From Clostridia bacterium (GTDB lineage: Bacteria > Bacillota > Clostridia > Oscillospirales > CAG-382), in NCBI GenBank assembly GCA_017630915.1, contig JAGBUH010000253.1:5196-69195 (forward strand): a stretch of 64,000 nt of DNA. Reading direction: 5' to 3'. Numbering within the stretch: the first letter of the stretch is position 1; every line of letters begins with the position of its first letter. Position numbers and translations under genes: made by a program. This document shows positions 8,687-36,672 of the stretch, piece after piece. The notes below the pieces were generated by a model, which worked only from the letters and a program-made list of their open reading frames with translations, did not search any database and was not told the origin of the DNA.

Positions 8687-8715
8687 TTGAAATCAGTTGA
8701 AACTTGTGTTATAGT
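8687..8715 (+). promoter_or_regulatory. candidate promoter of the glycan locus (TTGAAA-17-TATAGT)
   Basis: TTGAAA is at 8687..8692, the spacer is 17 nt and TATAGT is at 8710..8715. It lies in the 174-nt gap after the terminator. Confidence 0.4.
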
Positions 8716-8751
8716 ATATTTAAGTATAATTAAATTCAAATGGTGCTTTGT

Positions 8752-9510
8752 ATGGATCTTGGATTAAAGAACAAAAATGTGTTAATAGTGGGTGCCAGTA
8801 AAGGCATCGGGCGAGGAATTGTAAAAGGTTTTGCCGAAGAAAGTGCGAAAATTGTTGCGATAGCGCGTTCCGAAGAACTTTTAAAAGAAGTCGAAAGCGA
8901 AGCTTTACAATCGGGTGCATCTTCTTTCGCTTATGAAGTAAAGGACATTATGGAATGCGATACCCAAAGTTTCGCTGATGAACTTTTACAAAAATACGGC
9001 GTGTTTGACGTTGTTGTTCATAATGTCGGTGGTTCGCTTATCAGCCGTGACCATTTAGGTGGCGCTGATGATTGGAATTACGCTTTGAAATTCAATGCCG
9101 TTGCTGCTATAGATATGAATAGTCGTCTTATTCCTCCGATGATAGAACGCGGGTATGGCAGAGTTATTCATATTTCATCAATTTCTGCGATTATGCTTCG
9201 AGGCAATCCGTTATATGCTTCTGCCAAAGCGTTTTTAAACGCTTACGTAACAACGGTAGGCAGACAGCTTGCTCCGACGGGTGTTGTTTTGTGTTCGGTT
9301 ATGCCCGGCGCCGTTGCTTTTGAAGGCAGCTATTGGGACAAATCCATCAAAGCAGGTGAACCGAAGGTCGAAGATTTTTTACGCCATCATCAAGCGGTTA
9401 ACCGTTTTGGTACCCCCGAAGAAATTGCAAACGCAGTTTTATTTATGGCAAGCGACAAGTCCTCTTTTATGCAAGCGACCAATATCCCGGTTGACGGCGC
9501 TAATATGTAA
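8752..9510 (+). CDS. short-chain dehydrogenase/reductase (SDR)
   Basis: It has the Rossmann motif VGASKGIGRG and the catalytic YASAK motif. The track ORF starts at 8740, but the ATG at 8752 (MDLGLKNKNVLIVG) has a weak GGTG RBS and the usual SDR N-terminal length. The start is uncertain. Confidence 0.85.
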   Translation: MDLGLKNKNVLIVGASKGIGRGIVKGFAEESAKIVAIARSEELLKEVESEALQSGASSFAYEVKDIMECDTQSFADELLQKYGVFDVVVHNVGGSLISRDHLGGADDWNYALKFNAVAAIDMNSRLIPPMIERGYGRVIHISSISAIMLRGNPLYASAKAFLNAYVTTVGRQLAPTGVVLCSVMPGAVAFEGSYWDKSIKAGEPKVEDFLRHHQAVNRFGTPEEIANAVLFMASDKSSFMQATNIPVDGANM

Positions 9511-9519
9511 AGGTGTTTT

Positions 9520-10179
9520 ATGAAAAGAGTTTTTGATTTTACTGTAAGCCTTTTGGGTTTAATAATTCTTTCCCCTATTTTCCTCATACTTGCCCTTATG
9601 ATCGTTATCGATTCGCGTGGCGGTGTTTTCTTCCGCGGAGTTCGTGTAGGCCAACATGGTAAGGACTTCAAAATCTACAAATTTCGCAGTATGCGCCCCG
9701 ATTGCGAGGGCAAGGGAAAATGGAACGTCGGAAATAACGACGACAGAATCACCCGCGTCGGCCACTTTCTCCGCAATACAAAGTTAGACGAACTTCCTCA
9801 ATTGATAAACGTACTTAAAGGTGATATGAGTCTCGTCGGACCGCGGCCTGAATTGAGAGTGTACATAGATATGTACACCGAACGCGAAATGCCGATTCTC
9901 GATTTAAAACCCGGTGTTACCGATTGGGCTTCGATGACAAACTTCGAACAGTTTAAAGGTTTTACAGAAGCCGCAGACCCCGATGAGTATTATTTAAAAG
10001 CGGTCAGACCACTTAAACTCGAATTACAGCTTTATTATCGATATAATAACAGTTTTATCGGAGACTTGAAATGTCTATTTTGGACTGTTTACAAGGTGAT
10101 TACCAGAACGCAGAAACTCCCTGCCGATGTCCAAGCGATTGTTGATAAAAAACGAGCAGAAATGGAAAACACGGTATAA
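9520..10179 (+). CDS. small monotopic polyprenyl-phosphate sugar-phosphate transferase (PglC/WbaP C-terminal type, Bac_transf)
   Basis: 219 aa with one N-terminal hydrophobic hairpin and the motifs KFRSM, DELPQLINVLKGDMSLVGPRP. Confidence 0.9.
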   Translation: MKRVFDFTVSLLGLIILSPIFLILALMIVIDSRGGVFFRGVRVGQHGKDFKIYKFRSMRPDCEGKGKWNVGNNDDRITRVGHFLRNTKLDELPQLINVLKGDMSLVGPRPELRVYIDMYTEREMPILDLKPGVTDWASMTNFEQFKGFTEAADPDEYYLKAVRPLKLELQLYYRYNNSFIGDLKCLFWTVYKVITRTQKLPADVQAIVDKKRAEMENTV

Positions 10180-10207: not shown

Positions 10208-11347
10208 ATGATAAAAACTCTTTTTAGTGAATTTAATCCAAAGGGTCTCATTAAAAGTGATGACAAGCGTTTTCGATATATAGACGTTTTATATGTCATC
10301 GGCATTTTGCTTGTCGTATGGGGACATTCACACCCCATTGATGAAAGTTGGCATGGTACTTGGTATAGTCACTTGAATGGATTCATATATACGTTTCATA
10401 TGCCGTTGTTCTTTTTCATCGGCGGTTACTTAATGGTTTTTTCGCGTAGCGTCGAAGAACTCGGTTATTTCAAATGGGCATTGGGTAAAATATGCAAATT
10501 CCTAGTACCTTATATCGTACTAACCGCACTTGCATACTATCCAAAATCACTTTTGGGCGATACAAGCGACATTGTTTCTTTGAGTTTTGAATATTTTCTA
10601 ACCACTACGTTTTTAATTCCACGTATAGGTGTATGGGGACATTTTTGGTTCATTCCCACGTTTTTAATACTCGATCTCGCTTGGGGTGCTTGGCGTGCTT
10701 GTGTGAAAAAGTCCAATTTTGTGTATCGTGCAGGGCTTATAATTGGTTTTTTAGTTTCTCTCGCACTTGCAATATTCCCTCTTCTTTCTGATTACTTTGT
10801 TCTTTACGATTTGAGCCAAGTTGCATTGTTCTATGCTAGCGGCATTATCACCGCGCTTCTCAAACCTGTTCTGTGGGACAAGCACTGGAAGAATTGGCTT
10901 TGGATTGTTATCGGTGCATTGGGCACATATTTCTTATATCCTTTTGGAAACGCTGCTTTTAGATACACCCCGATTATTGGCGGAGATATGTTTTACCCGT
11001 ACAGCGATCAACCAATTAAATACATTCCTTTTAATAATTTTATCGTTGGCATGTTCCTTGTTTGGGCATGTTGGAATCTTGGGAAGTCACTTTCTGTTTT
11101 CAAATTCACAAAGTCGTCTAAAATAATCACGCAATATAATTTTACGATTTATCTCTACTCATGGCCTATACAGGCGTTTACAGATGTAATTTTACGTCGT
11201 ATAGGTACAAACTGGTTAATAATCATCGCCATTCTTTTTGCGATTGGTTTTATAGTTCCAGCAGCTATTATTTTCATTTATAAAAAAGCAACTTTCTTGC
11301 ATTGCAAATTCATGGATTATCTTATTGGCATCCAAACCACAAAATGA
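10208..11347 (+). CDS. membrane acyltransferase family 3 (glycan O-acylation)
   Basis: Polytopic protein with the motifs RYIDVLYVIGILLVVWGHSH and FHMPLFFFIGGY. I chose the ATG at 10208 because an AAGGAAAT RBS precedes it. The track start at 10127 overlaps the previous gene. Confidence 0.8.
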   Translation: MIKTLFSEFNPKGLIKSDDKRFRYIDVLYVIGILLVVWGHSHPIDESWHGTWYSHLNGFIYTFHMPLFFFIGGYLMVFSRSVEELGYFKWALGKICKFLVPYIVLTALAYYPKSLLGDTSDIVSLSFEYFLTTTFLIPRIGVWGHFWFIPTFLILDLAWGAWRACVKKSNFVYRAGLIIGFLVSLALAIFPLLSDYFVLYDLSQVALFYASGIITALLKPVLWDKHWKNWLWIVIGALGTYFLYPFGNAAFRYTPIIGGDMFYPYSDQPIKYIPFNNFIVGMFLVWACWNLGKSLSVFKFTKSSKIITQYNFTIYLYSWPIQAFTDVILRRIGTNWLIIIAILFAIGFIVPAAIIFIYKKATFLHCKFMDYLIGIQTTK

Positions 11348-11368: not shown

Positions 11369-12307
11369 ATGGACAGCAAACAATTAGCTTGGCTTATACG
11401 ACGACACGGCATTGAAATGACGCATCTTTCGGGCGGAAGCCATATCGGTGCAATTCTTTCTGTCGCTGATATAATGGCAGTACTGTATTCTGATATTTTA
11501 AAATACGACACCACCAATCCCAAATGGTGTGACCGCGACCGTTTTATTTTAAGTAAAGGACATGCAGGAGGTTCGGTATATGCAGCTCTTGCCGAATCGG
11601 GTTTTTTCGCAGTTGACGAATTGAAAACCCACTACCAAAATGGAAGCAGACTCTCCGGTCACGTTTCTCATCATTTACCGGGCGTTGATTTTTCAACCGG
11701 TTCGTTAGGACATGGCTTATCCGCCGGCGTTGGCATGGCACTTGCCGCAAAAAAAGATAAAAAACAACACGAGGTTTTTGTTGTATTAGGCGACGGCGAA
11801 TGTAACGAAGGTTCTGTTTGGGAAGCGGCGCAAACAGCAACTCATTTTGGACTTGACAACCTCATTGCCATTGTTGACAACAACAAAATGCAAAGCCTTG
11901 ATTATTGCGTAAACACACTTGACGCAGGTTCTCTTTATGATAAATGGTTCGCTTTCGGCTGGAATACATTTGTCGTTAATGGGCACGACCATGATGCGCT
12001 TCGCGATAAAATGAATACCATAAAAAACGGCAAACCCACCGTAATAATTGCCGAAACCATCAAAGGCAAGGGCGTTTCCTTTATGGAAGAAGATATTCTT
12101 TGGCATTACCGTTTTCCGCACGATGGTTGGGAATATGACTGTGCAGTAAACGAACTTCACAAAATAAAACCTGATGGCGTACAAGACATTTATACTCCGA
12201 ACGGAATTATAAATCCTAAACTTCCTGATGCTAATGAAATCAATAAAGATATTCACCATACCATGTCCGAAACATATAAACCCACTTGGAACAAGCAGGA
12301 GGCATAA
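11369..12307 (+). CDS. transketolase, N-terminal (TPP-binding) subunit
   Basis: 312 aa with the motifs GGSHIGAILSVADIMAVLY, SKGHAG and GDGECNEGSVWEA, which together form the diphosphate-binding motif of split transketolases. Confidence 0.88.
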   Translation: MDSKQLAWLIRRHGIEMTHLSGGSHIGAILSVADIMAVLYSDILKYDTTNPKWCDRDRFILSKGHAGGSVYAALAESGFFAVDELKTHYQNGSRLSGHVSHHLPGVDFSTGSLGHGLSAGVGMALAAKKDKKQHEVFVVLGDGECNEGSVWEAAQTATHFGLDNLIAIVDNNKMQSLDYCVNTLDAGSLYDKWFAFGWNTFVVNGHDHDALRDKMNTIKNGKPTVIIAETIKGKGVSFMEEDILWHYRFPHDGWEYDCAVNELHKIKPDGVQDIYTPNGIINPKLPDANEINKDIHHTMSETYKPTWNKQEA

Positions 12308-12309: not shown

Positions 12310-13230
12310 ATGAGAGATACATTCGTTAAAACACTCATAGAACTTGCCAAAAGCAATCCGAATATTGAGCTTATAACAGGCGACCTTGGTTTTGGTGTAT
12401 TAAAACCTTTTTGGGAAGCATTGCCTGATCAATTCATTAACGCAGGTATCGCAGAGCAAAACATGACTTCCCTTGCGGCAGGAATGTCGTTAGAAGGCAA
12501 AACCGTTTTCACATATTCTATTGGTAATTTCCCTACACTACGATGTGTTGAACAAATCAGAAACGACTGCGCATATCACAATGCTAACGTTAAAATCGTT
12601 TGCATAGGCGGCGGTTTTGTTTACGGTTCGCTCGGCATGAGCCACCAAGCAACCGAAGATATTGCTATAATGCGTGCGCTCCCCGATGTTGCTGTATTTG
12701 CGCCATGCGATTCTTTTGAAACGGTCGCTGTAACAAAAGCTATCGCCGAATATCACGGTACGTGTTATCTTCGTCTTGGCAGGGGCGGCGAAAAGCCGAT
12801 CCATAACGGACCGCTTAACGATTTTAAAATTGGCAAAGCTATTAAAATATCCGATGGCGAACGCGTTGCTATATTTTCAACTGGCGCTATATGCGATGAA
12901 ATACTTCAAGCACGCGAAGAATTAAAGTCCAATGGAATCAATCCTGCTGTATATACCTTCCCCACCGTCAAGCCACTTGACAAAGATACTATTATCGATG
13001 TGGCAAATAAATACGATGTTATCGTCACTTGCGAAGAACACAATACCATCGGCGGATTTGGAAGCGCAGTAGCCGAGGTTATTTCGGAATTTGATCATAA
13101 AGCACGCTTACTAAAAATCGGAGTTCCTGATTGTTATTCCACTTATGTTGGAAATCAAAAATACCTTCGCGGACAGTTCGGTTTAGACGGAAAAAGTATC
13201 TCAAAAAAGATTTTGGATGCAATAAAATGA
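12310..13230 (+). CDS. transketolase, C-terminal (pyrimidine-binding) subunit
   Basis: The motifs FINAGIAEQNMTSLAAGMS and GMSHQATEDIAIMR are present. The ATG at 12310 is preceded by a GGAGG RBS, and the track start at 12286 overlaps the previous gene. Confidence 0.88.
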   Translation: MRDTFVKTLIELAKSNPNIELITGDLGFGVLKPFWEALPDQFINAGIAEQNMTSLAAGMSLEGKTVFTYSIGNFPTLRCVEQIRNDCAYHNANVKIVCIGGGFVYGSLGMSHQATEDIAIMRALPDVAVFAPCDSFETVAVTKAIAEYHGTCYLRLGRGGEKPIHNGPLNDFKIGKAIKISDGERVAIFSTGAICDEILQAREELKSNGINPAVYTFPTVKPLDKDTIIDVANKYDVIVTCEEHNTIGGFGSAVAEVISEFDHKARLLKIGVPDCYSTYVGNQKYLRGQFGLDGKSISKKILDAIK

Positions 13231-14318
13231 AGATTTTGATTTTAGCAAATCATTTTAATACTTTACGCATTTTCAGGCGAGAATTGATCAAAGCAATTTC
13301 GCAAAACGGTCATGATGTTGTTATTTCTATCCCCAATTGCGACGATGAAAACAAACAAATTTTAGAATCATACGGTAGCCGTGTCGTTTTTACCGATTTT
13401 GAAAGAAGAGGAATGAACCCTCTTAAAGATTTGAAGTTATTACGCGAATACAAACGCTTAATCAAAGAGGAACACCCCGATAAAATTATAGCATACACAA
13501 TAAAATGCAACATTTACGGCGGTTTTGCATGTCAATCTTTAAAAATCCCTCATTATGCGAATGTCACAGGGTTAGGTTCTACTTTTCAAGAACAAAATTT
13601 AACAAGAAAAATCGTTTCTTTTCTTTATAAGTTCTCTCTCAAAAAGTCAAAACGCGTTTTCTTTGAAAACGAGGGCAACAAAAATACGTTGGTGAACGAC
13701 AAAATAATCAAAGTTGATCAAGCCGTTGTTATGCCCGGTGCAGGCGTTAACTTGAAAGAATTTGCACCTGTTGCCTACCCTACCGATAAACAACCTATTC
13801 GTTTCCTTTTCGTTGGGCGAATCATGCGTGAAAAGGGTGTTGACGAATATTTCGAAGCTATTAAAAGAATCAAATCAGAATATCCGTATGCAGCATTTGA
13901 TTTTATTGGTTGGTACGAAGATAATTACGAAGCAGCCGTTAAGCAATTGGAGCAAGAGAACTTAATCAAATTCCACGGTTTCCAATCAGATGTAAAACCG
14001 TTTATAGAACAAGCGCATTGTGTCGTACTGCCATCTTGGCATGAAGGCATGTCAAATACCCTGCTTGAATCAGCCGCCATGTGCAGACCTCTTATCACAA
14101 CCAACATTCACGGTTGTAAAGAGTCTGTAACAGACGGCGAAAACGGTTTATTAACCGAACCGAGAAATAGCGCAAGTTTGTACTCGGCACTCAAACGGTT
14201 TATTCAGATGTCCCAACAAGAAAGAATACAAATGGGGTTAAACGGAAGAAAGCACATGGAAGAATCCTTTGATAAAGACATGGTCGTGGAACTAACTTTA
14301 AAAGAAATTTTCGATTAA
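13227..14318 (+). CDS. glycosyltransferase family 4 (GT-B)
   Basis: The sequence starts MKILILANHF and carries the EX7E-type block EGMSNTLLESAAMCRPLITT. An ATGA overlap with the transketolase stop sets the start at 13227. Confidence 0.85.
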   Translation: MKILILANHFNTLRIFRRELIKAISQNGHDVVISIPNCDDENKQILESYGSRVVFTDFERRGMNPLKDLKLLREYKRLIKEEHPDKIIAYTIKCNIYGGFACQSLKIPHYANVTGLGSTFQEQNLTRKIVSFLYKFSLKKSKRVFFENEGNKNTLVNDKIIKVDQAVVMPGAGVNLKEFAPVAYPTDKQPIRFLFVGRIMREKGVDEYFEAIKRIKSEYPYAAFDFIGWYEDNYEAAVKQLEQENLIKFHGFQSDVKPFIEQAHCVVLPSWHEGMSNTLLESAAMCRPLITTNIHGCKESVTDGENGLLTEPRNSASLYSALKRFIQMSQQERIQMGLNGRKHMEESFDKDMVVELTLKEIFD

Positions 14319-14338: not shown

Positions 14339-15445
14339 ATGATAAAACTCATGATACTCTTAGCAGTATCAATGTGCTTGGCGTATTGTTCTCAGCACGG
14401 CATATTGGTAGTTCCGCTCACAAAAAAACGAAAACTCGATATTCCTATCATAATTATTATTATCATGTTAAGTCTGTTAATCGGACTTCGAACGCACTAC
14501 GACGACACTCAAAACTATATTACAATGTTCATGGATTCGCCTACCGTTTCAGAATATCATGATTCTTCGCCAGGCTTTTTTTCAAACCCATTGTTTTATT
14601 ATTTACAGAGTTTTTTTAGACACAACGTAATGGATAATCACCACTTATTCTTTACAGTCGTAGCATTTTTCACTATTTCGTGTATCATCTGGTTTATAGC
14701 TAAATATTCGTCAAATTTCCCATTCAGCATCCTTTTGTTTTTCTGTATCGGCATGGTATTAGTTCCAATGTCTGCAATGAAGCAAGGCTTGGCGATCGCA
14801 GTAAGTTTAATAGGTATTGACCAATTGTTAAAAAAAAGATATATAGTGTATTATCTTTTACTAACTATAGCCATTCTTTTCCACGCATACGCTATAATGT
14901 TGATTGTTTTGCCATTATTTATAGGGCGACCTTGGACAATTTTTACATACGTTATTATTGGTGCCGTAATTATTGTTCTGTTCACTTTTGAATCAACAAT
15001 CACGAGTTTTTTATCCGTCGCTGAAGACGCGGGCAAAAGCTTAAACGAAGAAGTTTTATTGGATTCACAAGGCATAAACGTATTTCGATTAGCTGTTTTT
15101 GCCGTCCCACCCATACTTTCGTTCCTGTTTCTAGAACTCCTAAATCCTTCTTACAATAAAAATCGTCATTTGTTTATGAATATGAGCATACTCAGTTTTT
15201 TAATAATGTGTATGGGGATATTTAGCGCGGCCACTTTATTTGGAAGAAGTGCCGTTTATTTTGAAATAGGTACTATTTTGATTCTGCCTTGGGTAGTTGA
15301 AGAAATGTTCAACAAAGAATCCCGCGGTGCCGCATTTGTCATCGTGGGCAGTTGTTATTTACTCTTTTTTGCATATATGGTCAAAGACTTCTCATATGCA
15401 TATAGGTCTATTGATATTGTAGAATTTGTTAGATCCATAATATAG
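14339..15445 (+). CDS. EpsG-family polytopic membrane protein (Wzy-like polymerase candidate)
   Basis: 368 aa with more than 10 hydrophobic segments. GLRTHYDDTQNYITMF resembles the R..G.D...Y motif of the EpsG family. Confidence 0.6.
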   Translation: MIKLMILLAVSMCLAYCSQHGILVVPLTKKRKLDIPIIIIIIMLSLLIGLRTHYDDTQNYITMFMDSPTVSEYHDSSPGFFSNPLFYYLQSFFRHNVMDNHHLFFTVVAFFTISCIIWFIAKYSSNFPFSILLFFCIGMVLVPMSAMKQGLAIAVSLIGIDQLLKKRYIVYYLLLTIAILFHAYAIMLIVLPLFIGRPWTIFTYVIIGAVIIVLFTFESTITSFLSVAEDAGKSLNEEVLLDSQGINVFRLAVFAVPPILSFLFLELLNPSYNKNRHLFMNMSILSFLIMCMGIFSAATLFGRSAVYFEIGTILILPWVVEEMFNKESRGAAFVIVGSCYLLFFAYMVKDFSYAYRSIDIVEFVRSII

Positions 15446-18462: not shown

Positions 18463-19005
18463 ATGAACTTTATTAAAGAAATTATTTATCGCCTCAGAGG
18501 CGAATTCACAACCGAAAAACTAATCAAAATGGGAATGACGGTAGGCAAAAATTTTGCCAGATTAAACGGCGTCATTCTTGATCCATCACATTGTTGGCTA
18601 ATACAAATCGGTGATAATGTAACTATGGCACCACGAGTACATATCCTTTGTCATGATGCCAGTACAAAACAATTTTTGGGTTATACAAAAATTGGCAGAG
18701 TCAATATCGGCAACAATGTTTTTATAGGAGCCGAAACCGTTGTATTGCCCGGCGTTAACATTGGGAATAATGTTATCATAGGAGCGAATAGTACCGTAAC
18801 GCACGATATTCCTGACAACACCGTTGTCGCAGGAAGTCCTACAAAAGTCATCTCTTCAATGGACGACTATCTTACCAAGGAAAAAGAAAACATGTGCAAT
18901 TCCGTCTGCTATGGTGCTGAGTATACGCTTCGAGAAAAAGTTTCCATTGAAAACCGATTGAAACAAAAAGACGAGCTAAATGGAAAGATAGGTTATATAG
19001 TGTGA
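18463..19005 (+). CDS. hexapeptide-repeat (LbH) O-acetyltransferase
   Basis: It carries the tandem hexapeptides IGNNVFIGAETVVLPGVNIGNNVIIGANSTV. Confidence 0.85.
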   Translation: MNFIKEIIYRLRGEFTTEKLIKMGMTVGKNFARLNGVILDPSHCWLIQIGDNVTMAPRVHILCHDASTKQFLGYTKIGRVNIGNNVFIGAETVVLPGVNIGNNVIIGANSTVTHDIPDNTVVAGSPTKVISSMDDYLTKEKENMCNSVCYGAEYTLREKVSIENRLKQKDELNGKIGYIV

Positions 19006-27968: not shown

Positions 27969-27971
27969 TTT

Positions 27972-28964: not shown

Positions 28965-28974
28965 ATCGTCCAAT

Positions 28975-30183
28975 ATGAAAAAAATATTATTACTCCCCTC
29001 TCTAAACCTTCCTATTCCTGCCATTGGCGGCGGCGCAGTCGAGCAACTCCTAACCTTTCTATTAGAAACAAATGAGCAATACGGAAAGGTAAGATTTGTT
29101 GTAGTATCAAAACTTGACGAAAAAGCTCGTACTATAAAATATAAGCACTCTAAAATATATTATTTTGATACCAATAATGATAGGTCTCCCGAACTCCCCT
29201 TATTTAGAACTGCTTGGACTTTTTATCGATTTTTTTGTAAGGTGTTTTACAATCGGATATCAACTAAAATATTCAAACCCAAACGTTTACCGATGGGTAT
29301 CAACGAGTTTTTTAGTTATTGTGTTGCAAAAAATGAAAAGATTGATATTGTCATCTTGGAAGGTCGATACGAAACACCATACGATTTCTTCAACGATATG
29401 GTAGGTAGCGAGAACTTATACCATCATATTCATGGTGAAAGAACAGAAGATCTTGCCGTTAGAAAGACTATCAACAATTCAATCTCTATCAGCACCTTTG
29501 TAAAAAACAGTTGGGTGATTAACAAAACAATTCCCGGTAAAAATATTGTGTTGCCTAACTGCGCTGATGTTGAGAAATTTGACGTTCAACTTGATACAGA
29601 CGCACGCAATAAAGCACGTTCTGAATTAGGTGTTAGCGCCGACGAATTGCTTATTTTGTATTGCGGAAGAATTATCCCCGAAAAAGGCATAAGAGAATTA
29701 CTTGATGCAATGGAAGAATTACGCGATAAACCCATCAAACTTTTAATGATCGGCAGTTCGGGCTTTTCTTTAAAAACGAAAACTGATTTTGAAACTGAAA
29801 TCGCAAACCAAATCAAGTCAAATCCAGCCATTATACAACTCGGATATATTCCCAATAATGAATTACCTACTTGGTTTTCTTTGTGCGACGTACAGGTGAT
29901 TCCAACAACTTGCCAAGAAGGTGCAGGGATTGTTGCTATTGAAGGTATGTCCGCAGGTTTGCCTTTAATTACAACTATTTCGGGCGGTATGGTCGAATAT
30001 GTAAACGACGAAGTTGCTATTCAATTACCGATTGATGAAAATTTGTCCCAAAATATTGTAAGAGCTGTTTTAAAATTGTACCATTCACCTGAAATGCGCC
30101 GAGAAATGAGTAACGCTGGAAAAGAAAATTCGCACAAATACAGCAAAGAAGATTACTATAAAAATTTCATCCAATTATTTTAA
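28975..30183 (+). CDS. glycosyltransferase family 4 (GT-B)
   Basis: It has the EX7E-type block CQEGAGIVAIEGMSAGLPLITT. Confidence 0.82.
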   Translation: MKKILLLPSLNLPIPAIGGGAVEQLLTFLLETNEQYGKVRFVVVSKLDEKARTIKYKHSKIYYFDTNNDRSPELPLFRTAWTFYRFFCKVFYNRISTKIFKPKRLPMGINEFFSYCVAKNEKIDIVILEGRYETPYDFFNDMVGSENLYHHIHGERTEDLAVRKTINNSISISTFVKNSWVINKTIPGKNIVLPNCADVEKFDVQLDTDARNKARSELGVSADELLILYCGRIIPEKGIRELLDAMEELRDKPIKLLMIGSSGFSLKTKTDFETEIANQIKSNPAIIQLGYIPNNELPTWFSLCDVQVIPTTCQEGAGIVAIEGMSAGLPLITTISGGMVEYVNDEVAIQLPIDENLSQNIVRAVLKLYHSPEMRREMSNAGKENSHKYSKEDYYKNFIQLF

Positions 30184-30241
30184 TTTGTTTTTCTTTTGTG
30201 TTCGATTTATATTAATACTTAGTTATATAGAGGGGATATAT

Positions 30242-31315
30242 ATGTTTAGCAAGATTTTATTGCCACTCAAAAAGATTCATGGTCACTTGTATGAAACAAA
30301 GCTATATTATAAAGAAAAGAATGAATTTTTTCATCAATATATTCGCCCGCTACTTAACAGAATGAATGAAAATCCCACTTCTGTTTTTTTAATCTTAACG
30401 CCAGAACATAACAATTTAGGTGATCACGCAATAGCACTAGCCGAAATAGAATTATTAAACTCGATAGGATTCAAGTATATTGAAATTACAGGTAAACAGC
30501 TTTTCAAGATGAAAAAATTCAAATATTTGAGCATCATGAATGGACGACCTATATTGATTAATGGTGGTGGCAATTTAGGTTCGATTTGGTTTGACATTGA
30601 ACAATTAATACGCGAAGTCATTTCAAAAAATCCAAATTCTTCTATTGCTATTCTCCCTAACACAATTCATTATGAGGATACTCCATTTTTCCAAAAAGAA
30701 AAACATAAAGCGAGTAGAATTTATAAAAAACATAAAAATCTATTCATGTTTGCTAGAGAAGAAATTTCTTATAAAAATATGATGCAGTTACATTCTAATG
30801 TAAAACTAATTCCCGACATGGTTCTATCATTAAAGCGCACCAACAACTTTAAACGAAACGGTTGTTTGCTTTGCTTGCGTAATGATTGCGAAAAAACTTT
30901 AAATGAAAATGATCAAAATTCCATTTTAAAGCAAGTTCAAACGATTTTTACCAATATCAAGCGTACCGATACCTGTCTTGATCACTCCGTTAGTATTGAA
31001 GATAGAACATACTATTTAGATAACAAATTCAATGAGTTTTGTTCTACAGAATTAGTGATAACCGATAGATTACACGGAATGTTGTTTGCAGCAATTTCAA
31101 ACACTCCATGTATCGTCATTAACAGTTTAAGCCCTAAACTTGTTGGATGTTATGAATGGATTCGATGTTTAGATTATATTAAATTTATTGATAACTTAGA
31201 AGATGTAACAAAAGTGTATTATGAAATTAAATCTTCAAAATCAAATTATGAAGATTTAAATTTGAAACCATACTTTAAAATACTTGCCCACGATTTATAT
31301 GAATTTTTCAACTAG
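30242..31315 (+). CDS. polysaccharide pyruvyltransferase family protein (copy 2, paralogue of 26877..27968)
   Basis: It shares the motifs of copy 1: LTPEHNNLGDHAIALAE, ILINGGGNLGSIW and ITDRLHGMLFAAISNTPCIVI. The ATG at 30242 follows a GAGGGG RBS; the track start at 30185 is a TTG. Confidence 0.8.
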   Translation: MFSKILLPLKKIHGHLYETKLYYKEKNEFFHQYIRPLLNRMNENPTSVFLILTPEHNNLGDHAIALAEIELLNSIGFKYIEITGKQLFKMKKFKYLSIMNGRPILINGGGNLGSIWFDIEQLIREVISKNPNSSIAILPNTIHYEDTPFFQKEKHKASRIYKKHKNLFMFAREEISYKNMMQLHSNVKLIPDMVLSLKRTNNFKRNGCLLCLRNDCEKTLNENDQNSILKQVQTIFTNIKRTDTCLDHSVSIEDRTYYLDNKFNEFCSTELVITDRLHGMLFAAISNTPCIVINSLSPKLVGCYEWIRCLDYIKFIDNLEDVTKVYYEIKSSKSNYEDLNLKPYFKILAHDLYEFFN

Positions 31316-31338
31316 CTTTGAGATTTCAAGGAGTTTTT

Positions 31339-32346
31339 ATGCCGAAAATAAGCATCATCGTGCCTATTTATAAAGTAGAGCCATACTTACATAAATGTAT
31401 TGATAGTATTCTGAATCAAACATTTTCCGACTTCGAATTAATTCTTGTAGATGATGGTAGTCCGGATAATTGTCCCCAAATATGCAACGAATATGCAGTG
31501 AAAGACGAACGAATAAAAACCATTCACAGAAGAAACGGCGGTCTTTCTGCAGCACGTAATTCAGGATTAAACATTGCCAAAGGGGATTATATTTGCTTTG
31601 TTGATAGCGACGATTTTATTCATCCTCAATATTGTGAATTGCTGTTAAACGAAATTGAAAAAAGCAACTTTGATTTTTGTGTATGTGACATTACACCTTT
31701 TAAAGATGAGAATACTGTAAATACTTATTTTCCTTACAACAATGTTATTTCGACTCATATTACTTTACATGAATACTTTCAAAACTCAAAAAAAGGTGTA
31801 TGGAACAAAATATACAAGCGAAATGTTTTTGATAATATTAGATTCTTTGATGGTCGTATCCATGAAGATATTATGTTCGCAACAGATTTACTAAATATTA
31901 TTAAAACTCCAATATCAGTAATAGATGCAAAATTATATTTTGCACGATCACGGTCTGATAGTTTATTCACTCTTGAAAAAATACATCCCGACAGAGTTTT
32001 TGCTGGCGAATATATGATAAGCAAAGCATTCAAGCAATGTCCAGAACTGTTTCCCTTTTGCTTAAAATATGCAATTATATATCCTTGGTCTTTTGTAGAC
32101 AAAATTTATGTAAAAAAAGATTTTTCAAATAATAAAAAATTTCTGTGCGACTTACAGAACTTAATACGCAAGTATAAAAAAGACTATAAACATTTAGAAA
32201 CGATCGATAAAATTACTAAACACCGCATGCTATTATTTTCGCGCAGTCGTTTTCTATATAGTTTCAATGCATACGGTAGATTACTACGCGTATATTTATA
32301 TCGTTTATTAAAAAAAGATCCCTATAAAACAGGTCATGGAATATAA
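31339..32346 (+). CDS. glycosyltransferase family 2 (DDGSPDNCP subfamily)
   Basis: It has SIIVPIYKVEPYLHKCIDSILNQTFSDFELILVDDGSPDNCP and FVDSDDFI. The ATG at 31339 follows an AAGGAG RBS. Confidence 0.88.
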   Translation: MPKISIIVPIYKVEPYLHKCIDSILNQTFSDFELILVDDGSPDNCPQICNEYAVKDERIKTIHRRNGGLSAARNSGLNIAKGDYICFVDSDDFIHPQYCELLLNEIEKSNFDFCVCDITPFKDENTVNTYFPYNNVISTHITLHEYFQNSKKGVWNKIYKRNVFDNIRFFDGRIHEDIMFATDLLNIIKTPISVIDAKLYFARSRSDSLFTLEKIHPDRVFAGEYMISKAFKQCPELFPFCLKYAIIYPWSFVDKIYVKKDFSNNKKFLCDLQNLIRKYKKDYKHLETIDKITKHRMLLFSRSRFLYSFNAYGRLLRVYLYRLLKKDPYKTGHGI

Positions 32347-32347
32347 T

Positions 32348-33367
32348 ATGTCGACTAACATCAAACCCAAAATAAGCATAATCGTTCCCGTTTATAATGT
32401 CGAAAAGTACATTCACAAATGTGTTCAAAGTATTTTAGCGCAAACTTTCACAGATTATGAACTGATACTTGTTGACGACGAAAGCCCCGACACCTGCCCT
32501 GCTATATGTGACGAATATGCTACAAAGTATGAGTTTATAAAAGTTGTGCATAAAAAGAACGGCGGTCTTGCTTCCGCAAGAAACGCCGGAATGAAAATTG
32601 CATCGGGTAAATTCATTATGTTTTTCGATAGTGACGACTATGTTAGTAGCGACACTTGTCAACTAATGTACGATGCAATTTCAAAGAATCCAACTGCATG
32701 GGTTCTATCAAATATTCACCGTGTAAACGAAAACGATGAATACGTATCCGGTCTTGATGAAAATCAAGCACTTGAAATATTCAACCAATGCCCCACATAC
32801 TTTGGCGCTTTCAAAATGTCTTTATCTGGTAGCGTTTGTAATAAAATTTACAATATGGATATTATACGCGAGAACAATCTTTGGTTTGACGAAAGTGTAC
32901 GTTTTGGAGAAGATGTTCCTTTTGATTCTCCATATTGCCAACTTTGCTCTGACATTGTATTTTTACCTACGCCTTTGTATTTTTATCGCGTTGTTGATGG
33001 TAGTTTAACACATACTTATCATGCGGATCACCTGGGTGTTTATATTAAGTTGTTTGGAATTCGTTTACCTTTGATTAAAGATGAAGAAATTCCCAAGTTT
33101 TGTGATACATATTTTTATTACTTTACCGACTTGATGAAGAACACCCATGATAAAAGAAATCCGATGTCATTTTTCGAAAAAATGAGATATAATCACAAAA
33201 TGATGAATACAAAAGAGTTTATATTTTGTGCCGAAAATACAACAGGAAATAATGACAGTCCTTTATATATGCGTATTACAAGAATGCATAATTACTATTT
33301 ATTTTGGTTGTTTTTAAAACTGTGCGATATAAAGCAATTATTATTTCGTGACATAGGAGAACAATAA
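32348..33367 (+). CDS. glycosyltransferase family 2
   Basis: It has SIIVPVYNVEKYIHKCVQSILAQTFTDYELILVDDESPDTCP and FFDSDDYV. The start is either 32348 or 32336; neither has a strong RBS. Confidence 0.85.
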   Translation: MSTNIKPKISIIVPVYNVEKYIHKCVQSILAQTFTDYELILVDDESPDTCPAICDEYATKYEFIKVVHKKNGGLASARNAGMKIASGKFIMFFDSDDYVSSDTCQLMYDAISKNPTAWVLSNIHRVNENDEYVSGLDENQALEIFNQCPTYFGAFKMSLSGSVCNKIYNMDIIRENNLWFDESVRFGEDVPFDSPYCQLCSDIVFLPTPLYFYRVVDGSLTHTYHADHLGVYIKLFGIRLPLIKDEEIPKFCDTYFYYFTDLMKNTHDKRNPMSFFEKMRYNHKMMNTKEFIFCAENTTGNNDSPLYMRITRMHNYYLFWLFLKLCDIKQLLFRDIGEQ

Positions 33368-34011
33368 TGAAAACGATTGCTATAATGCCGATAAAATTAA
33401 ATAACGAGCGATTACCCGGAAAGAATACTATGTTATTGGGGGACAAACCGTTATTGCAACATCAGTTAATTGCTGTGCGAGATTCTAATATGGCGGATGA
33501 CATATTTGTTTTTTGCAGTAATGAAGCGGTTTGTGAATATTTACCCGAAGGCGTGAAGTTCTTAAAGCGTTCAGCTGAGCTTGATCTCCCTACTGCAAAT
33601 TTTTCGCAAATCTTTGAAGCGTTTTCGAGCGAAAATCCTGCTGATATTTACGTCTATGTACATGCAACGGCTCCGTTCGTTTCAGTCGAAACGATAAAAG
33701 AGTGCATTTCCGCGGTAGTAAGTGGCGAATATGATTCGGCATTTTGTGCTGTGAAAATCCAAGATTTTCTTTGGAAAGACGGAGAGCCGATGAATTTCGA
33801 TGCGCAAAATATTCCGAGAAGTCAAGACATTGAGCCGATTTTCAGAGAAACATCGGGTGTTTATGTTTTTACAAGTGATGTGTTTAATAAATACCACAGA
33901 CGAATCGGTGTCAATCCCTTTATCAAAGAAGTATCGTTCAAAGAAGCTGTTGACATTAACAATCCCGAAGATTTTCAATTAGCAGAAGTTATGATGAATA
34001 TTAACCTATAA
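33367..34011 (+). CDS. NeuA/KdsB-family cytidylyltransferase (CMP-sugar-acid synthetase type)
   Basis: 214 aa. MKTIAIMPIKLNNERLPGKN is the N-terminal signature of acylneuraminate/Kdo cytidylyltransferases. There is a TAATG overlap with the upstream gene. Confidence 0.8.
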   Translation: MKTIAIMPIKLNNERLPGKNTMLLGDKPLLQHQLIAVRDSNMADDIFVFCSNEAVCEYLPEGVKFLKRSAELDLPTANFSQIFEAFSSENPADIYVYVHATAPFVSVETIKECISAVVSGEYDSAFCAVKIQDFLWKDGEPMNFDAQNIPRSQDIEPIFRETSGVYVFTSDVFNKYHRRIGVNPFIKEVSFKEAVDINNPEDFQLAEVMMNINL

Positions 34012-34021: not shown

Positions 34022-35611
34022 ATGAATTCGGTAAAAGTTTTAGACGTAACATTACGTGACGGCGGTTGCGTTATTGATTTTAATTTCGGACAAGCTTATA
34101 TGGAGCAAATTTTAGGTAATCTTGAAAAATCCGGTGTTGATATCATCGAATTAGGTTATCTTGATGCCAAAAAAGGCACTCCTGAGGGGAGAACTCAATT
34201 TTGTGACGAAAAAGTTGTACGCCAAGGTTTTCTCAAACAGAAGAAACAGGGTACCACCTATGTTGCAATGTTCGACTATGGAAAGTTTGACCCCGATACT
34301 TTGGAGCAATGCGACGGAAACGGCATTGACGGTTTACGTATTGCCTTTCATAAAAAAGACCGTTTGAATATGATTTCAACCGCGAAAAAGGTATTGGAAA
34401 AAGGTTATCAACTGTTTATTCAACCGATGACGATTATGCGTTACAGCGATGAAGAATTGTTGGAACTCATCAACGTTGTTAACACCGAACTTGCAAGAGC
34501 TACTGCCTTTTATGTTGTTGACAGCTTTGGTGAAATGCGTATGAACGACCTTAACCGCGTTGTTCATCTTGTAGACCATAACCTTAACCCTAATATACAA
34601 ATGGGCTTCCATTCCCACAATAATTTGCAGTTATCCTATTCTAACGCCGTTACACTTTTACAATTTTTCTCGTCCCGAAACGTGATAATTGACGCATCTA
34701 TTCTTGGTATGGGCAAAGGTGCAGGTAACCTTAATACAGAGCTTTTCCTTGAACACCTTAATCTTTATTATAACAAGAATTACAAAATAGAACCGCTTCT
34801 CGAAGTTATTGACAAGGTTGTAAACACAATTCGTGCCGAATTCTATTGGGGATATTCGATTGAATATTATCTTTCTTCGGTTAATCACTGTACGCCGAGT
34901 TATGCCGGACACTTTTATAAGAAACACATGTTGCCCGTCGAACAAGTTGCCGAATTGCTTGGCATGATTGCGGAAGAAAAGAAGATATCCTTCGATAAAG
35001 AATATGCCGAACAGTTATATCTTTCCTACAACGCAAGACGTCATGCTAATGACGACCCGACAATTCTTGCCCTTACCGAAAAAATCAAGGGTAAACGTGT
35101 TTTACTTCTCGCCCCGGGCAAACGTTTGACCGAAAAGCAAGAAGAAATCAATGCGCTCATCAACTCCAACGACGTTATTAGTATTTCGCTTAATGCTTTT
35201 GATAAATTTGATACAGATTTTGTTTTAACAACACGTGTCGATGCTTTCAATAATGCATTGCAGCAAAACAAGAAAATTATCGCGACAAGCGGCGTTTGTG
35301 AGTCTTCTTACGAAAATGTCTATTTGATTGACTATGAAAAATGGATTACCATCGAAAATGGAGTAAACGATTCTTCCGGAATAGTTGCCTTGAAACTCAT
35401 GGCAGCTTGTGGTGCTTCTGAAATCATTCTGGCAGGATTTGACGGTTTTTCGGTTGATATTAACAGCAACTATTACGACAAAACCATGCGCCGTCCCGTT
35501 ACCGAAGAGCAAGCAAGACAGCGCAACGAATATTTTAGTACATACGTGCGCAAATTACGCGTAAATACTCCTGTAACATATCTTACAAAATCACTTTACG
35601 AGGAAGAATAA
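34022..35611 (+). CDS. fusion protein: N-terminal DRE-TIM (HMGL-like, DmpG-type) aldolase domain plus C-terminal DUF115/MptE-like domain
   Basis: 529 aa. Residues 1 to about 340 carry VLDVTLRDGG (Asp metal ligand), GFHSHNN (His-x-His ligands) and GMGKGAGNLNTE. Residues from about 345 to 500 carry KGKRVLLLAPGKRL and IILAGFDGF, matching the two blocks of the stand-alone DUF115 protein at 22631. Confidence 0.6.
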   Translation: MNSVKVLDVTLRDGGCVIDFNFGQAYMEQILGNLEKSGVDIIELGYLDAKKGTPEGRTQFCDEKVVRQGFLKQKKQGTTYVAMFDYGKFDPDTLEQCDGNGIDGLRIAFHKKDRLNMISTAKKVLEKGYQLFIQPMTIMRYSDEELLELINVVNTELARATAFYVVDSFGEMRMNDLNRVVHLVDHNLNPNIQMGFHSHNNLQLSYSNAVTLLQFFSSRNVIIDASILGMGKGAGNLNTELFLEHLNLYYNKNYKIEPLLEVIDKVVNTIRAEFYWGYSIEYYLSSVNHCTPSYAGHFYKKHMLPVEQVAELLGMIAEEKKISFDKEYAEQLYLSYNARRHANDDPTILALTEKIKGKRVLLLAPGKRLTEKQEEINALINSNDVISISLNAFDKFDTDFVLTTRVDAFNNALQQNKKIIATSGVCESSYENVYLIDYEKWITIENGVNDSSGIVALKLMAACGASEIILAGFDGFSVDINSNYYDKTMRRPVTEEQARQRNEYFSTYVRKLRVNTPVTYLTKSLYEEE

Positions 35612-36081
35612 TGTCCAAAATAAAGATTCTCGCTATGGATGTTGACGGAACCTTGACTGACGGAAAGATATACGTTGGAGCTCAAGGCGAAGTTATGAAG
35701 GCATTTAACGTAAAAGACGGTTACGGTATTGCTCAACTTCTCCCCAAAATGTCTATAACGCCCGTCATCATTACCGGCCGTAAATCCGAAATTGTTTCCC
35801 GTCGCGCAGAAGAATTGAAAATCAATAACGTTTACCAAGGTGTAAACGACAAGTTAACCAAATTAAGCGAAATTGCTTTTGAATTTGGTGTCACACTTGA
35901 AAACGTCGCATATATCGGTGACGACCTTAATGATATTGAATGCATCGAGCATTGTGGACTTACTGCATGTCCGTCAGATTCCATAAACGAGGTTTTGCGA
36001 ATGGTCGATTATATTTGCCCTTCTTGCGGCGGTGACGGTGCGGTTCGTGAATTTATCGAATATATCTCGGAAATGAACTGA
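35611..36081 (+). CDS. KdsC-family HAD-IIIA sugar-acid-phosphate phosphatase
   Basis: 156 aa with AMDVDGTLTDGKIY, ITGRKSEIV and GDDLNDIE, typical of Kdo-8-P or Kdn/Neu-9-P phosphatases. There is a TAATG overlap with the upstream gene. Confidence 0.8.
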   Translation: MSKIKILAMDVDGTLTDGKIYVGAQGEVMKAFNVKDGYGIAQLLPKMSITPVIITGRKSEIVSRRAEELKINNVYQGVNDKLTKLSEIAFEFGVTLENVAYIGDDLNDIECIEHCGLTACPSDSINEVLRMVDYICPSCGGDGAVREFIEYISEMN

Positions 36082-36085
36082 TAAA

Positions 36086-36640
36086 ATGCTTGAATTTTTT
36101 TACCGATTGCCCTTATCATATGCTGTATTCGGTGTGGTTACGATTATCGTTATTTGGGCTATTGCGCATTATAAATTTGCGTTACGTGGATATGGCAGTG
36201 GAATAGACGCGAAGCAGCATTGGAAAGTTTTCAACTACATTGTTGTAATTTTATCAGTGATACTTATTTTATACGCTACGATATTTTCGCGCAGCGATGA
36301 AATAACGAAACTCATTCTGCAACCGTTCTATTCCTTTAAAATTGCAAAAATCCAAAACGAAATGTACCGATCAATGTTAATGAATATTGTTTTATTTGTT
36401 CCATTCGGGCTATCATTTGCATCTATTTTGTCACAAAGACAAACAGTTTCAACAAGAATTGCCATAACTTCCCTATTGGGACTGCTTTTGAGCGTTCTAA
36501 TTGAGTCTGTACAATATTTTTGCAAATTGGGCGAGGCATGGACCGACGATGTAATTTGCAACACATTAGGGGCTTTTATAGGCTCGTTAACGTTGGTACT
36601 TTGGAAAGTTTATTTTTTAAAAAAACATGATTATACATAA
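36086..36640 (+). CDS. VanZ-like membrane protein
   Basis: 184 aa with 4-5 hydrophobic segments and the motifs NIVLFVPFGLSF and ESVQYF...DDVICNTLGAFIG. Confidence 0.65.
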   Translation: MLEFFYRLPLSYAVFGVVTIIVIWAIAHYKFALRGYGSGIDAKQHWKVFNYIVVILSVILILYATIFSRSDEITKLILQPFYSFKIAKIQNEMYRSMLMNIVLFVPFGLSFASILSQRQTVSTRIAITSLLGLLLSVLIESVQYFCKLGEAWTDDVICNTLGAFIGSLTLVLWKVYFLKKHDYT

Positions 36641-36672
36641 AAAAGAATCCACTTACAAGTGGATTCTTTTTT
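36641..36672. terminator. bidirectional rho-independent terminator between convergent genes
   Basis: A 9-bp GC-containing stem (36644..36652 pairs with 36659..36667) is extendable by A-T pairs, has a TTACAA loop, and has an A-run on the left and a T-run on the right. Confidence 0.8.

Follow-up and report, generated by a model that had tools for sequence, protein, structure and literature searches.

Bacterial surface glycans are sorted into Wzx/Wzy-dependent, ATP-binding cassette (ABC) transporter-dependent and synthase-dependent routes, and which route a locus follows, and with it what kind of polymer it makes, is commonly predicted from its gene content. Here, we analyse a glycan locus in a 64-kb stretch of DNA from a Clostridia bacterium (contig JAGBUH010000253.1, hereafter the window), whose genes are numbered g1-g29 and all lie on the plus strand. 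An earlier note on this DNA had pointed out that the locus joins hallmarks of the ABC-exporter and Wzy types without a Wzx flippase, and our assignments confirm the families concerned, namely Wzm and Wzt, which form the ABC exporter, and EpsG, a polytopic protein of the Wzy family. Comparing gene content at the conserved chromosomal site of this locus family, we observe that Wzx and Wzm-Wzt alternate as the exporter, that EpsG is retained with its invariant residues beside either one, and that the wzt gene is mosaic.

The Wzx/Wzy pathway, as in the Bacillus subtilis eps operon with EpsG and the Acinetobacter K loci, resembles this locus in the phosphoglycosyl transferase that primes undecaprenyl phosphate (Und-P), in the many single-domain glycosyltransferases of families 2 and 4 (GT2 and GT4) and in a polytopic PF14897 protein with conserved Arg, Asp and His; a matching Wzx is found in three related loci (L010, L013 and L020). 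It differs in that the window has neither Wzx nor a chain-length regulator and carries Wzm-Wzt in the Wzx position. ABC-dependent O-polysaccharide assembly (Escherichia coli O8/O9a, Klebsiella pneumoniae O12 and Aquifex WzmWzt; PMC9445017, PMC11231755) shares Wzm and a Wzt whose ATPase domain is conserved and whose C-terminal Wzt_C domain changes along with the genes specific to the glycan. Those loci, however, have no Wzy-family protein and usually a WecA-type start, whereas here a PglC-type initiator and EpsG are conserved, and we recognised no terminator enzyme bearing a ruler domain in the window locus. Dual-chain cell-wall polysaccharide loci (Lactococcus lactis cwps and Enterococcus faecalis epa; PMC9574508) likewise encode both an ABC exporter and a polymerase-like polytopic protein and consist of a conserved and a variable part, but they keep Wzx for the second chain, build a rhamnan backbone (rml, Rgp) and use glycosyltransferase C (GT-C) or LCP enzymes for joining, none of which is present in the window. 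For the rhamnan genes, no rml was found in the window and g25 alone gives an RgpF match, below threshold (19.3 bits vs a cut-off of 25).

The surface-layer (S-layer) slg clusters of Geobacillus stearothermophilus NRS 2004/3a and Paenibacillus alvei (PMC2943079) are also polycistronic Firmicute clusters with a WbaP-type initiator, Wzm-Wzt, adaptor and repeat transferases, and a single polytopic member of the polymerase/ligase superfamily, active once the glycan has been exported. Their WsaB/WsfB proteins carry Wzy_C and glycosylate the S-layer protein, whereas the window encodes a member of the EpsG family and no tetratricopeptide repeat (TPR) partner is evident. In the window, we noticed no gene for an S-layer or SLH protein, and no genome-wide search for one was made. 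In group 2 capsules, a linker of poly-3-deoxy-D-manno-octulosonic acid (Kdo) is made by KpsS/KpsC. Such Kdo-linked ABC glycans, which include the Kdo-capped Klebsiella O antigens (PMC11231755), have in common with our locus a conserved module for a cytidine monophosphate (CMP)-activated ulosonic acid and a transferase beside the ABC exporter, together with polymer-specific transferases that vary; they differ in that here the candidate transferase is DUF115/MptE-like and not GT99/GT107, an HMGL-like aldolase and not KdsA is encoded, and the module also occurs with Wzx. PglK and Wzk are ABC transporters standing in for Wzx: an E. coli wzx mutant regained O16 antigen when given Helicobacter pylori Wzk, an ABC-type flippase (PMC2841628), and an experiment has thus already coupled a flippase of the ABC type to a Wzy pathway. 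These are single-polypeptide MsbA-like exporters in an engineered substitution, whereas we see a two-component ABC-2 Wzm-Wzt in natural alternation at one locus.

The component families are known, as are loci mixing ABC and Wzy-like parts in Gram-positive cocci. In the literature searched, no paper describes this locus type, and we did not find described a natural, recurrent Wzx/Wzm-Wzt alternation at an orthologous locus that retains a Wzy-family protein, a mosaic wzt tied to a swappable transferase block, or a DUF115 and HMGL-aldolase Kdo-like module in Gram-positive wall-glycan loci.

Families were assigned by Pfam and NCBIfam, and the window scan took in open reading frames (ORFs) of at least 100 amino acids (aa). 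The genes for EpsG, the exporter and the adjoining DUF115 protein are the following:

14339-15445, plus strand: g7, EpsG/Wzy-family polytopic protein (PF14897, 145 bits, cut-off 30)
22631-23413, plus strand: g16, DUF115/MptE-like protein (PF01973, 55.8 bits, gathering score 34.6)
23428-24285, plus strand: g17, Wzm ABC-2 permease (ABC2_membrane, 63.7 bits; longest ORF from 23410)
24295-25146, plus strand: g18, Wzt N-terminal extension and nucleotide-binding domain (ABC_tran, 73 bits; NCBIfam TagH/Wzt-like)
25147-25614, plus strand: g18, Wzt C-terminal carbohydrate-binding-type domain (Wzt_C, 35.5 bits, cut-off 30.4)

Among the scanned ORFs across the 64 kb, we found no MOP/Wzx flippase, no CpsC/CpsD or Wzz chain-length regulator and no LCP enzyme, in agreement with the earlier note, and tblastn with the Wzx of L010 uncovered no remnant or pseudogene in the window. 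A Wzx just outside the window, which the earlier note had named as part of what would refute its reading, was not found as far as the 64 kb reach. Chain-length regulators (Wzz, CpsC/CpsD) were absent from the related loci viewed as well.

Genomic context was sampled through 12 exact-protein look-ups, and pattern scans for further loci gave four in genome contigs and two in metagenome contigs; the related genomes are recorded as uncultured Ruminococcus or as Eubacteriales metagenome-assembled genomes. Eight independent loci were classified by exporter. Three of them (class W: L010, L013 and L020, from Ruminococcus sp. JE7B6) carry a Polysacc_synt/Wzx flippase of 512-515 aa beside the DUF115 gene. 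In the other five (class A: the window, L014, L015, L016-18 from human-gut metagenomes, and L019), Wzm-Wzt follows DUF115, and 3-7 extra transferase genes come after it. Both exporters never occur in one locus (0/8), and no class-A locus gave a Wzx match. More specifically, positions 23410-33367 of the window (~10 kb) stand where L013 has 2.7 kb encoding Wzx and one pyruvyltransferase, and in L010 the slot that holds Wzm-Wzt and the following variable genes in the window is occupied by Wzx and a second DUF115 gene. Because Wzx and Wzm-Wzt alternate at the same site, never together and with EpsG wherever that region is in view, replacement of the exporter fits better than addition of a second pathway. 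The earlier note had started from the view that an EpsG system needs a Wzx; class-A loci that keep EpsG with Wzm-Wzt at the same site undercut this view, while the broader suspicion of a non-textbook pathway is borne out by a locus with Wzm-Wzt and EpsG and no Wzx in the 64-kb window. As part of the reading set out below, we tentatively regard the export module as a swappable cassette beside the conserved DUF115 gene g16, which is its left anchor.

At the border of this cassette, L010 carries a 142-aa, internally deleted relic of the window-type DUF115 (L010:17227-17655) directly upstream of Wzx, with 64% identity to the window type over its N-terminal part and 48% over its C-terminal part, and a second DUF115 gene, full-length and divergent (45%), lies 3' of Wzx. 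The relic looks like a recombination scar of cassette exchange.

The locus family is fixed at one chromosomal site in Ruminococcus/Oscillospirales. The flanks of the window hold the his operon, DUF4317, TMEM164 and dockerin-protein genes, and ClpXP, trigger factor, sortase, ParAB and GroEL genes. These genes assign the window to a Ruminococcus-like Clostridium, an uncultured bacterium of gut or rumen. At the left end, the order his operon-DUF4317-TMEM164 is common to the window, L001/L014, L002/L013 and L010; at the right end, VanZ and NTP-transferase-ClpX-ClpP-Tig are found in both the window and L013, with 83-85% identity. Between these ends, the locus divides into five segments, namely a 5' module, variable region 1 (EpsG and transferases), DUF115-Wzm-Wzt up to the nucleotide-binding domain, variable region 2 (the Wzt C-terminal domain, transferases and pyruvyltransferases) and a CMP-sugar module. 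The 5' module (short-chain dehydrogenase/reductase (SDR), initiating transferase, transketolase pair and GT4) shows 64-95% identity among relatives and the 3' module (cytidylyltransferase, aldolase and phosphatase) 62-83%. In the middle, DUF115 shows 67-78% identity in L013-L016 and L019, and the Wzm g17 71-87% in other class-A loci. Variable region 1 is collinear between the window and the Wzx-type L010 (50-81% identity) and is composed differently in L002, L015, L016 and L019. In L016, it includes genes that would decorate the glycan with phosphocholine, namely choline kinase, LicC-like, BCCT and LicD (1221-5212).

The segment border inside Wzt is sharp. Among class-A loci, the ATPase domain is 85-92% identical and the C-terminal domain 18-37%, except for 71% between the window and L019. 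These two loci also share g19 (68%; 12989-14281 in L019) and the pyruvyltransferase that follows it (59%), so that g19 travels with a pyruvyltransferase and one particular type of Wzt C-terminal domain. A conserved nucleotide-binding domain joined to a variable C-terminal domain that tracks the downstream genes places the specificity domain of Wzt in the 3' variable block, whose remaining genes in the window are the following:

25601-26866, plus strand: g19, orphan 421-aa protein (no Pfam, NCBIfam or PDB relative)
26877-27968, plus strand: g20, pyruvyltransferase, variable region 2 (Pfam)
27972-28964, plus strand: g21, GT2, variable region 2 (Pfam)
28975-30183, plus strand: g22, GT4, variable region 2 (Pfam)
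30185-31315, plus strand: g23, pyruvyltransferase, variable region 2 (Pfam)
31318-32346, plus strand: g24, GT2, variable region 2 (Pfam)
32336-33367, plus strand: g25, GT2, variable region 2 (Pfam)

The mosaic wzt (24295-25614, compared with L014, L015, L016 and L019) implies a recombination breakpoint near residue 280. G+C content dips to 0.30-0.34 in variable region 2 (26000-33000), against 0.36 over the locus as a whole and 0.41 in the flanks; variable region 2 has the lowest G+C content of the window (0.30), which is consistent with a horizontally exchanged cassette. The orphan g19 carries a PP-loop-like motif (FFSGGLDAVNT, with an SGGLDA core) and a CCKCEKC cluster. In L016, variable region 2 begins with a Stealth hexose-1-phosphate transferase (13004-14128), which suggests a teichoic-acid-like phosphoglycan there, and the presence of this enzyme in the 3' block fits polymer synthesis in the cytoplasm by that block. 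The L016 lineage is highly prevalent in the human gut, its DUF115 protein being present in 66 blocks of the collection.

EpsG is found in both exporter classes, in every locus with that region in view. The window protein has about 10-11 transmembrane (TM) helices and an AlphaFold2 (AF2) model with a pLDDT of 90, and its family comprises about 50 proteins of roughly 368 aa with 34-100% identity. Ten polar or aromatic residues are invariant in the family (R51, D56, T57, Y60, Q149, H182, W199, N247, R250 and R303), and all ten are kept even in the roughly 22%-identical EpsG of L015; the positive-inside rule would place them at the outer face of the membrane. Pairwise identities of 60% between the window (class A) and L010 (class W), 59% between the window and L001 (class A), and 62% between L001 and L010 indicate that similarity among these sequences does not follow exporter class. 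EpsG ranks among the fastest-evolving proteins of the locus (22-62% identity), its divergence being about that of the adjacent variable transferases, and fast evolution in step with variable transferases is typical Wzy behaviour. We had considered EpsG as a part of the conserved 5' module that is not specific to a glycan unit, and this was ruled out by its identity of 46-60% (22-33% in distant loci), lower than that of its 5' neighbours (64-95%) and of the DUF115, Wzm and CMP-sugar genes (62-87%). PF14897 members in Acinetobacter K loci have been assigned as Wzy polymerases from capsule structures (PMC10715181, PMC9241936). Membership in this family, covariation with variable region 1 and orthology to the EpsG of Wzx-type loci favour EpsG as a polymerase candidate. 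A fold search with the model gave weak GT-C-type matches, ALG6 and PglB (probability 0.8, TM-score 0.36-0.43, E 0.25-0.4, not significant), and the sequence has no match to the ligase family Wzy_C even at E up to 5 and no extracytoplasmic or TPR domain.

Taking these observations together, we lean, at somewhat less than an even chance, towards a reading in which the operon makes a complex O-acetylated and pyruvylated surface or cell-wall heteroglycan with a Kdo-like sugar, Wzm-Wzt replaces Wzx, and EpsG acts outside. The PglC-like transferase g2 would prime Und-P, the GT4 g6 and g8-g15 would assemble an oligosaccharide, and the acetyltransferases would decorate it. The DUF115 protein g16 would then attach a CMP-activated Kdo-like sugar produced by g26-g28, and g19-g25 would extend and pyruvylate the non-reducing end. 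The variable Wzt C-terminal domain would recognise this end, and Wzm-Wzt would move the glycan, linked to undecaprenyl pyrophosphate (Und-PP), over the membrane, doing the job of the Wzx flippase in the sister loci. On the outer face, EpsG would transfer the Und-PP-linked glycan to an acceptor glycan by the same chemistry as in the class-W sisters; joining of exported blocks, i.e., a polymerase activity, seems to us about twice as probable as en-bloc ligation to another acceptor. Anchoring to the wall would be completed by an enzyme encoded elsewhere, such as an LCP. We infer every one of these biochemical steps and their order, as well as that no Wzx encoded elsewhere serves this locus.

An intact EpsG in every class-A locus with the region in view departs from the ABC route, which needs no Wzy-type protein. 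With slightly less confidence than in the overall reading, we suggest that Wzm-Wzt naturally feeds a Wzy-family polymerase in a hybrid ABC/Wzy route, with Wzx and Wzm-Wzt (plus its matched block) as interchangeable cassettes. Several points weigh against the proposed replacement. The view covers 64 kb of this genome, and a Wzx may be encoded elsewhere in it, the JE7B6 genome having two Wzx paralogs of the family; class assignment comes from the eight independent loci. Wzk/PglK belong to another ABC type than Wzm-Wzt, and we know, from a search that was not exhaustive, of no Wzm-Wzt transporter shown to supply a Wzy. No solved O-antigen ligase is among the 50 fold matches listed for EpsG and no relative of its sequence was found in the PDB; with fold matches this weak and no PDB relative, it is family membership that points to its chemistry. 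If variable region 2 yields a long capped polymer, block polymerisation would be mechanistically awkward and a ligase simpler. The window scan also revealed no chain-length regulator for this locus.

It is unlikely, yet deserves serious weight as the main rival, that two glycans are encoded, an idea already raised in the earlier note: a variable-region-1 unit would leave by a Wzx encoded elsewhere and be polymerised by EpsG, an independent variable-region-2 polymer, built in the cytoplasm, would leave by Wzm-Wzt, and the two might be joined outside, as in the dual-chain polysaccharides of lactococci and enterococci. The two regions do vary independently, each with its own specificity protein (EpsG and the Wzt C-terminal domain), and dual-chain loci in L. 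lactis and E. faecalis have an ABC exporter together with Wzx and Wzy-like or GT-C enzymes (PMC9574508). Genomes of the group can hold more than one Wzx of the family, as the two in JE7B6 attest, and variable region 2 has no initiating transferase and must therefore use a primer from another gene. An added ABC pathway should, however, leave the in-locus Wzx in place, whereas Wzx is absent from 5/5 class-A loci and Wzm-Wzt sits exactly at the class-W Wzx position. Loss of Wzx with EpsG and the unit transferases kept would moreover strand Und-PP intermediates unless another exporter steps in, and no Wzx, GT-C linker or LCP lies in the 64-kb window. What survives of the two-glycan idea is thus the pair of independently varying regions, and the exporter pattern is better accounted for by replacement. 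The earlier note had also offered a non-polymerase role for EpsG, which is possible but not favoured given a clear PF14897 match, fast evolution and divergence with the adjacent transferases. One form of it, which we consider rather improbable, is a WaaL/WsaB-like en-bloc ligase acting onto a glycolipid, wall polymer or protein, with a short glycan in Wzx loci and a long one in Wzm-Wzt loci. A ligase would be indifferent to the export route, which would explain EpsG with either exporter, and Firmicute precedent exists in S-layer glycan clusters with a WbaP-type initiator, Wzm-Wzt and WsaB/WsfB (PMC2943079); the lack of a chain-length regulator in the locus and the roughly 9-11 transferases of class-W loci, large for a repeat unit, point the same way. 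Yet EpsG matches PF14897 and not Wzy_C at the permissive threshold given above, diverges rapidly with variable region 1 as an enzyme reading a variable structure would, lacks extracytoplasmic and TPR domains, and comes with no identified acceptor candidate.

Less probable again, and clearly improbable in our view, is that EpsG is a GT-C-like extracytoplasmic transferase that adds a side-chain sugar from a polyprenol-monophosphate-sugar donor in a three-component system. Its best, if weak, structural neighbours are ALG6 and PglB, a GtrB-type GT2 with two C-terminal TM helices is encoded 10 kb downstream (47381-48385, minus strand), and three-component systems decorate ABC-exported polymers in Gram-positives (PMC9574508). 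Against this, the fold matches are not significant and the PF14897 match is strong and specific, no GtrA-type flippase was found, and the GtrB-like gene lies outside the locus. We regard as very improbable, and close to refuted, the reading of EpsG as a functionless leftover of a former Wzx/Wzy pathway that persists solely because exporters were exchanged recently. The truncated DUF115 relic in L010 does show that recombination scars occur in this locus family, but EpsG is intact and full-length with its invariant residues kept in five class-A loci from hosts with a G+C content of 0.36-0.51, and identities of 22-59% among these loci with the invariant residues kept argue for long maintenance under selection.

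The locus family is conserved across Ruminococcus and other Oscillospirales, including the very prevalent human-gut lineage. If Wzm-Wzt does serve EpsG, exporter and polymerase would be less tightly coupled than assumed, the rules that Wzy implies Wzx and that Wzm/Wzt implies no Wzy would fail for a major group of gut anaerobes, and the textbook split between Wzy- and ABC-dependent assembly would not hold in Oscillospirales; natural paired loci (the window vs L010 or L013) would then be available for probing what sets the export route. The locus further points to an uncharacterised pathway for a Kdo-like sugar with an HMGL-type aldolase in the place of KdsA/KdsD, and to DUF115 enzymes as Kdo-like-sugar transferases in Gram-positive wall glycans. 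Such glycans are likely determinants of phage reception and host interaction.

The genes of this sugar-acid module are the following:

33367-34011, plus strand: g26, KdsB/PseF-like cytidylyltransferase of the CMP-ulosonic acid synthetase type (CTP_transf_3, 75.9 bits; 77-83% identity in L013-L016)
34022-35611, plus strand: g27, 529-aa HMGL-like (DmpG-type) aldolase (Pfam/NCBIfam; PDB 3dxi, 1nvm; extra C-terminal half)
35611-36081, plus strand: g28, KdsC-family sugar-acid phosphate phosphatase (TIGR01670, 163 bits, cut-off 107)

In Ruminococcus sp. JE7B6 (L020:11536-14504), DUF115-Wzx is followed by canonical KdsB, KdsA, KdsD and KdsC. The same slot in the window and most relatives holds a KdsB-like protein, an HMGL-like aldolase and KdsC; the synthase KdsA (DAHP_synth_1) and the isomerase KdsD are not in the window's slot, which has the 529-aa aldolase in their stead. 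Among solved structures, g27 is nearest to a putative aldolase (3dxi) and to the pyruvate aldolases DmpG/BphI. It seems that a non-orthologous DRE-TIM aldolase has taken the place of Kdo-8-phosphate synthase and isomerase, and we infer that g27 stands in for KdsA/KdsD to make a Kdo-like 3-deoxy-ulosonic acid. The cytidylyltransferase g26 falls below every equivalog cut-off (PseF, 58.8 vs 205.7), so its assignment is at family level. DUF115 adjoins the canonical CMP-Kdo genes in L020, and g16 is a probable transferase for a Kdo-type sugar (ulosonic acid), with which its weak WaaZ match is consistent. We also entertained the conserved Kdo-like sugar as a cap or export signal read by the Wzt C-terminal domain; this idea is weakened because that domain is hypervariable and follows the 3' block and not the conserved module. 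The extra C-terminal half of g27, about 250 aa, is unannotated.

The remaining genes comprise the rest of the 5' module, variable region 1 and the last gene of the unit:

8740-9510, plus strand: g1, SDR oxidoreductase (adh_short_C2, 129 bits; 83-92% identity in L001/L002/L010)
9520-10179, plus strand: g2, small PglC-like phosphoglycosyl transferase (Bac_transf, 197 bits; TIGR03025 C-terminal catalytic region)
10208-11347, plus strand: g3, AT3 membrane O-acyltransferase (Acyl_transf_3, 102 bits; longest ORF from 10127)
11369-12307, plus strand: g4, transketolase-like N-terminal subunit, binding thiamine pyrophosphate (TPP) (Transketolase_N, 153 bits)
12310-13230, plus strand: g5, transketolase-like C-terminal subunit (Pfam; longest ORF from 12286)
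13227-14318, plus strand: g6, GT4 of the Glyco_trans_4_2 type (Pfam)
15464-16447, plus strand: g8, GT2, variable region 1 (Pfam)
16450-17337, plus strand: g9, GT2, variable region 1 (Pfam)
17349-18455, plus strand: g10, GT4, variable region 1 (Pfam)
18463-19005, plus strand: g11, left-handed beta-helix (LbH) acetyltransferase, variable region 1 (clear match)
19002-20000, plus strand: g12, GT2, variable region 1 (Pfam)
20022-20993, plus strand: g13, GT2, variable region 1 (Pfam)
21041-21595, plus strand: g14, LbH-like acetyltransferase, variable region 1 (weak, NCBIfam EpsC/WcaB-like)
21618-22634, plus strand: g15, GT2, variable region 1 (Pfam)
36086-36640, plus strand: g29, VanZ-like membrane protein (Pfam; final gene of the unit; same position in L013)

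In total, the locus encodes one Bac_transf protein, eight GT2, three GT4, one AT3, two LbH acetyltransferases, two pyruvyltransferases, Wzm, Wzt with Wzt_C, and EpsG. All counts in the content list of the earlier note hold (the second LbH protein, g14, being weak) with the exception of a second DUF115 domain, as g16 alone is a clear member; that list did not include the SDR, the split transketolase, the KdsB-like/aldolase/KdsC module, VanZ and the orphan g19. As a candidate for the second DUF115 protein, g19 was ruled out, since BLASTP does not relate it to g16 and neither Pfam nor the PDB gave a match, and the sole other DUF115 trace in the locus is in the C-terminal half of the aldolase g27 (14.7 bits, E 0.027). 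The sole initiating enzyme in the window, g2, has one N-terminal hydrophobic helix and 84-95% identity in relatives. No counterpart of the AT3 protein g3 is present in L010, and the GT4-EpsG pair (g6-g7) is retained even in the distant loci L003, L008 and L015. The SDR and the split transketolase pair (g1, g4 and g5) show 70-92% identity across the locus family and lie beside the initiating transferase; a TPP-dependent two-carbon transfer followed by a reduction, for a sugar precursor, is a possibility.

The 29 plus-strand ORFs form an unbroken series from 8740 to 36640 in the ORF listing of the window, with a widest intergenic gap of 47 nucleotides (nt) (20993 to 21041). ATGA-type overlaps occur at g5/g6 and g15/g16, GTGA at g11/g12 and TAATG at g25/g26 and g27/g28. 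The longest-ORF starts of three genes (g3, g5 and g6) run 22-100 nt into the upstream gene, and later in-frame starts abolish these overlaps, namely 10208 for g3 and 12310 for g5, both preceded by a Shine-Dalgarno-like sequence, and 13227 for g6, which leaves the ATGA overlap; for g5 and g6, the later starts give protein lengths as in relatives. The tight packing described in the earlier note is therefore confirmed, and the promoter-like element and the strong bidirectional terminator that it had placed at the two ends were both found, the promoter-like element at exactly the reported position:

8574-8605, plus strand: terminator-like hairpin (14-pair stem followed by a T run) that ends the upstream leucine-rich repeat (LRR)/dockerin gene; 5' edge of the unit
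8687-8715, plus strand: promoter-like site (TTGAAA, 17 nt with TG, TATAGT; 10/12 consensus match only)
36633-36678, either strand: bidirectional terminator-like palindrome (perfect 20-bp stem, folding free energy -26.2 kcal/mol, z -8.8)

The promoter-like site stands downstream of the hairpin that closes the LRR/dockerin gene, and we argue for it from this position and not from its score, as such matches do not exceed their frequency in shuffled sequence. Consensus matches to internal promoters or terminators lie within genes and are no commoner than in shuffles, which makes them uninformative on operon structure. The palindrome is flanked on both sides by A/T runs and is common to the convergent NTP-transferase gene. 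At gathering thresholds, Rfam gave no match to a regulatory RNA, for instance an antitermination element that an operon of 28 kb might use. From this arrangement, it is plausible that the 28-kb locus is a single transcription unit.

Other genes of the window were noted in passing. The window alone has, at 6904-8565, a gene for a BspA-type LRR protein that ends in a dockerin, inserted so as to separate TMEM164 from the glycan locus; no such gene is at that position in L001, L002 and L010. Next to the GtrB-type gene, whose product is of the polyprenol-phosphate-sugar synthase type, 47031-47363 (minus strand) encodes a soluble 110-aa protein without family matches and not a flippase of the GtrA type. 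An apolipoprotein N-acyltransferase-like protein (LNT_N and CN_hydrolase) is encoded at 55695-57287, and such proteins are unusual in Firmicutes. At 41937-43715 (minus strand), the gene for an extracytoplasmic function (ECF)-type sigma factor (Sigma70_r2) precedes one for a single-pass membrane protein of 412 aa that has no family matches and is probably the anti-sigma factor; a comparable pair of a sigma factor and an unknown protein adjoins the his operon in L001.

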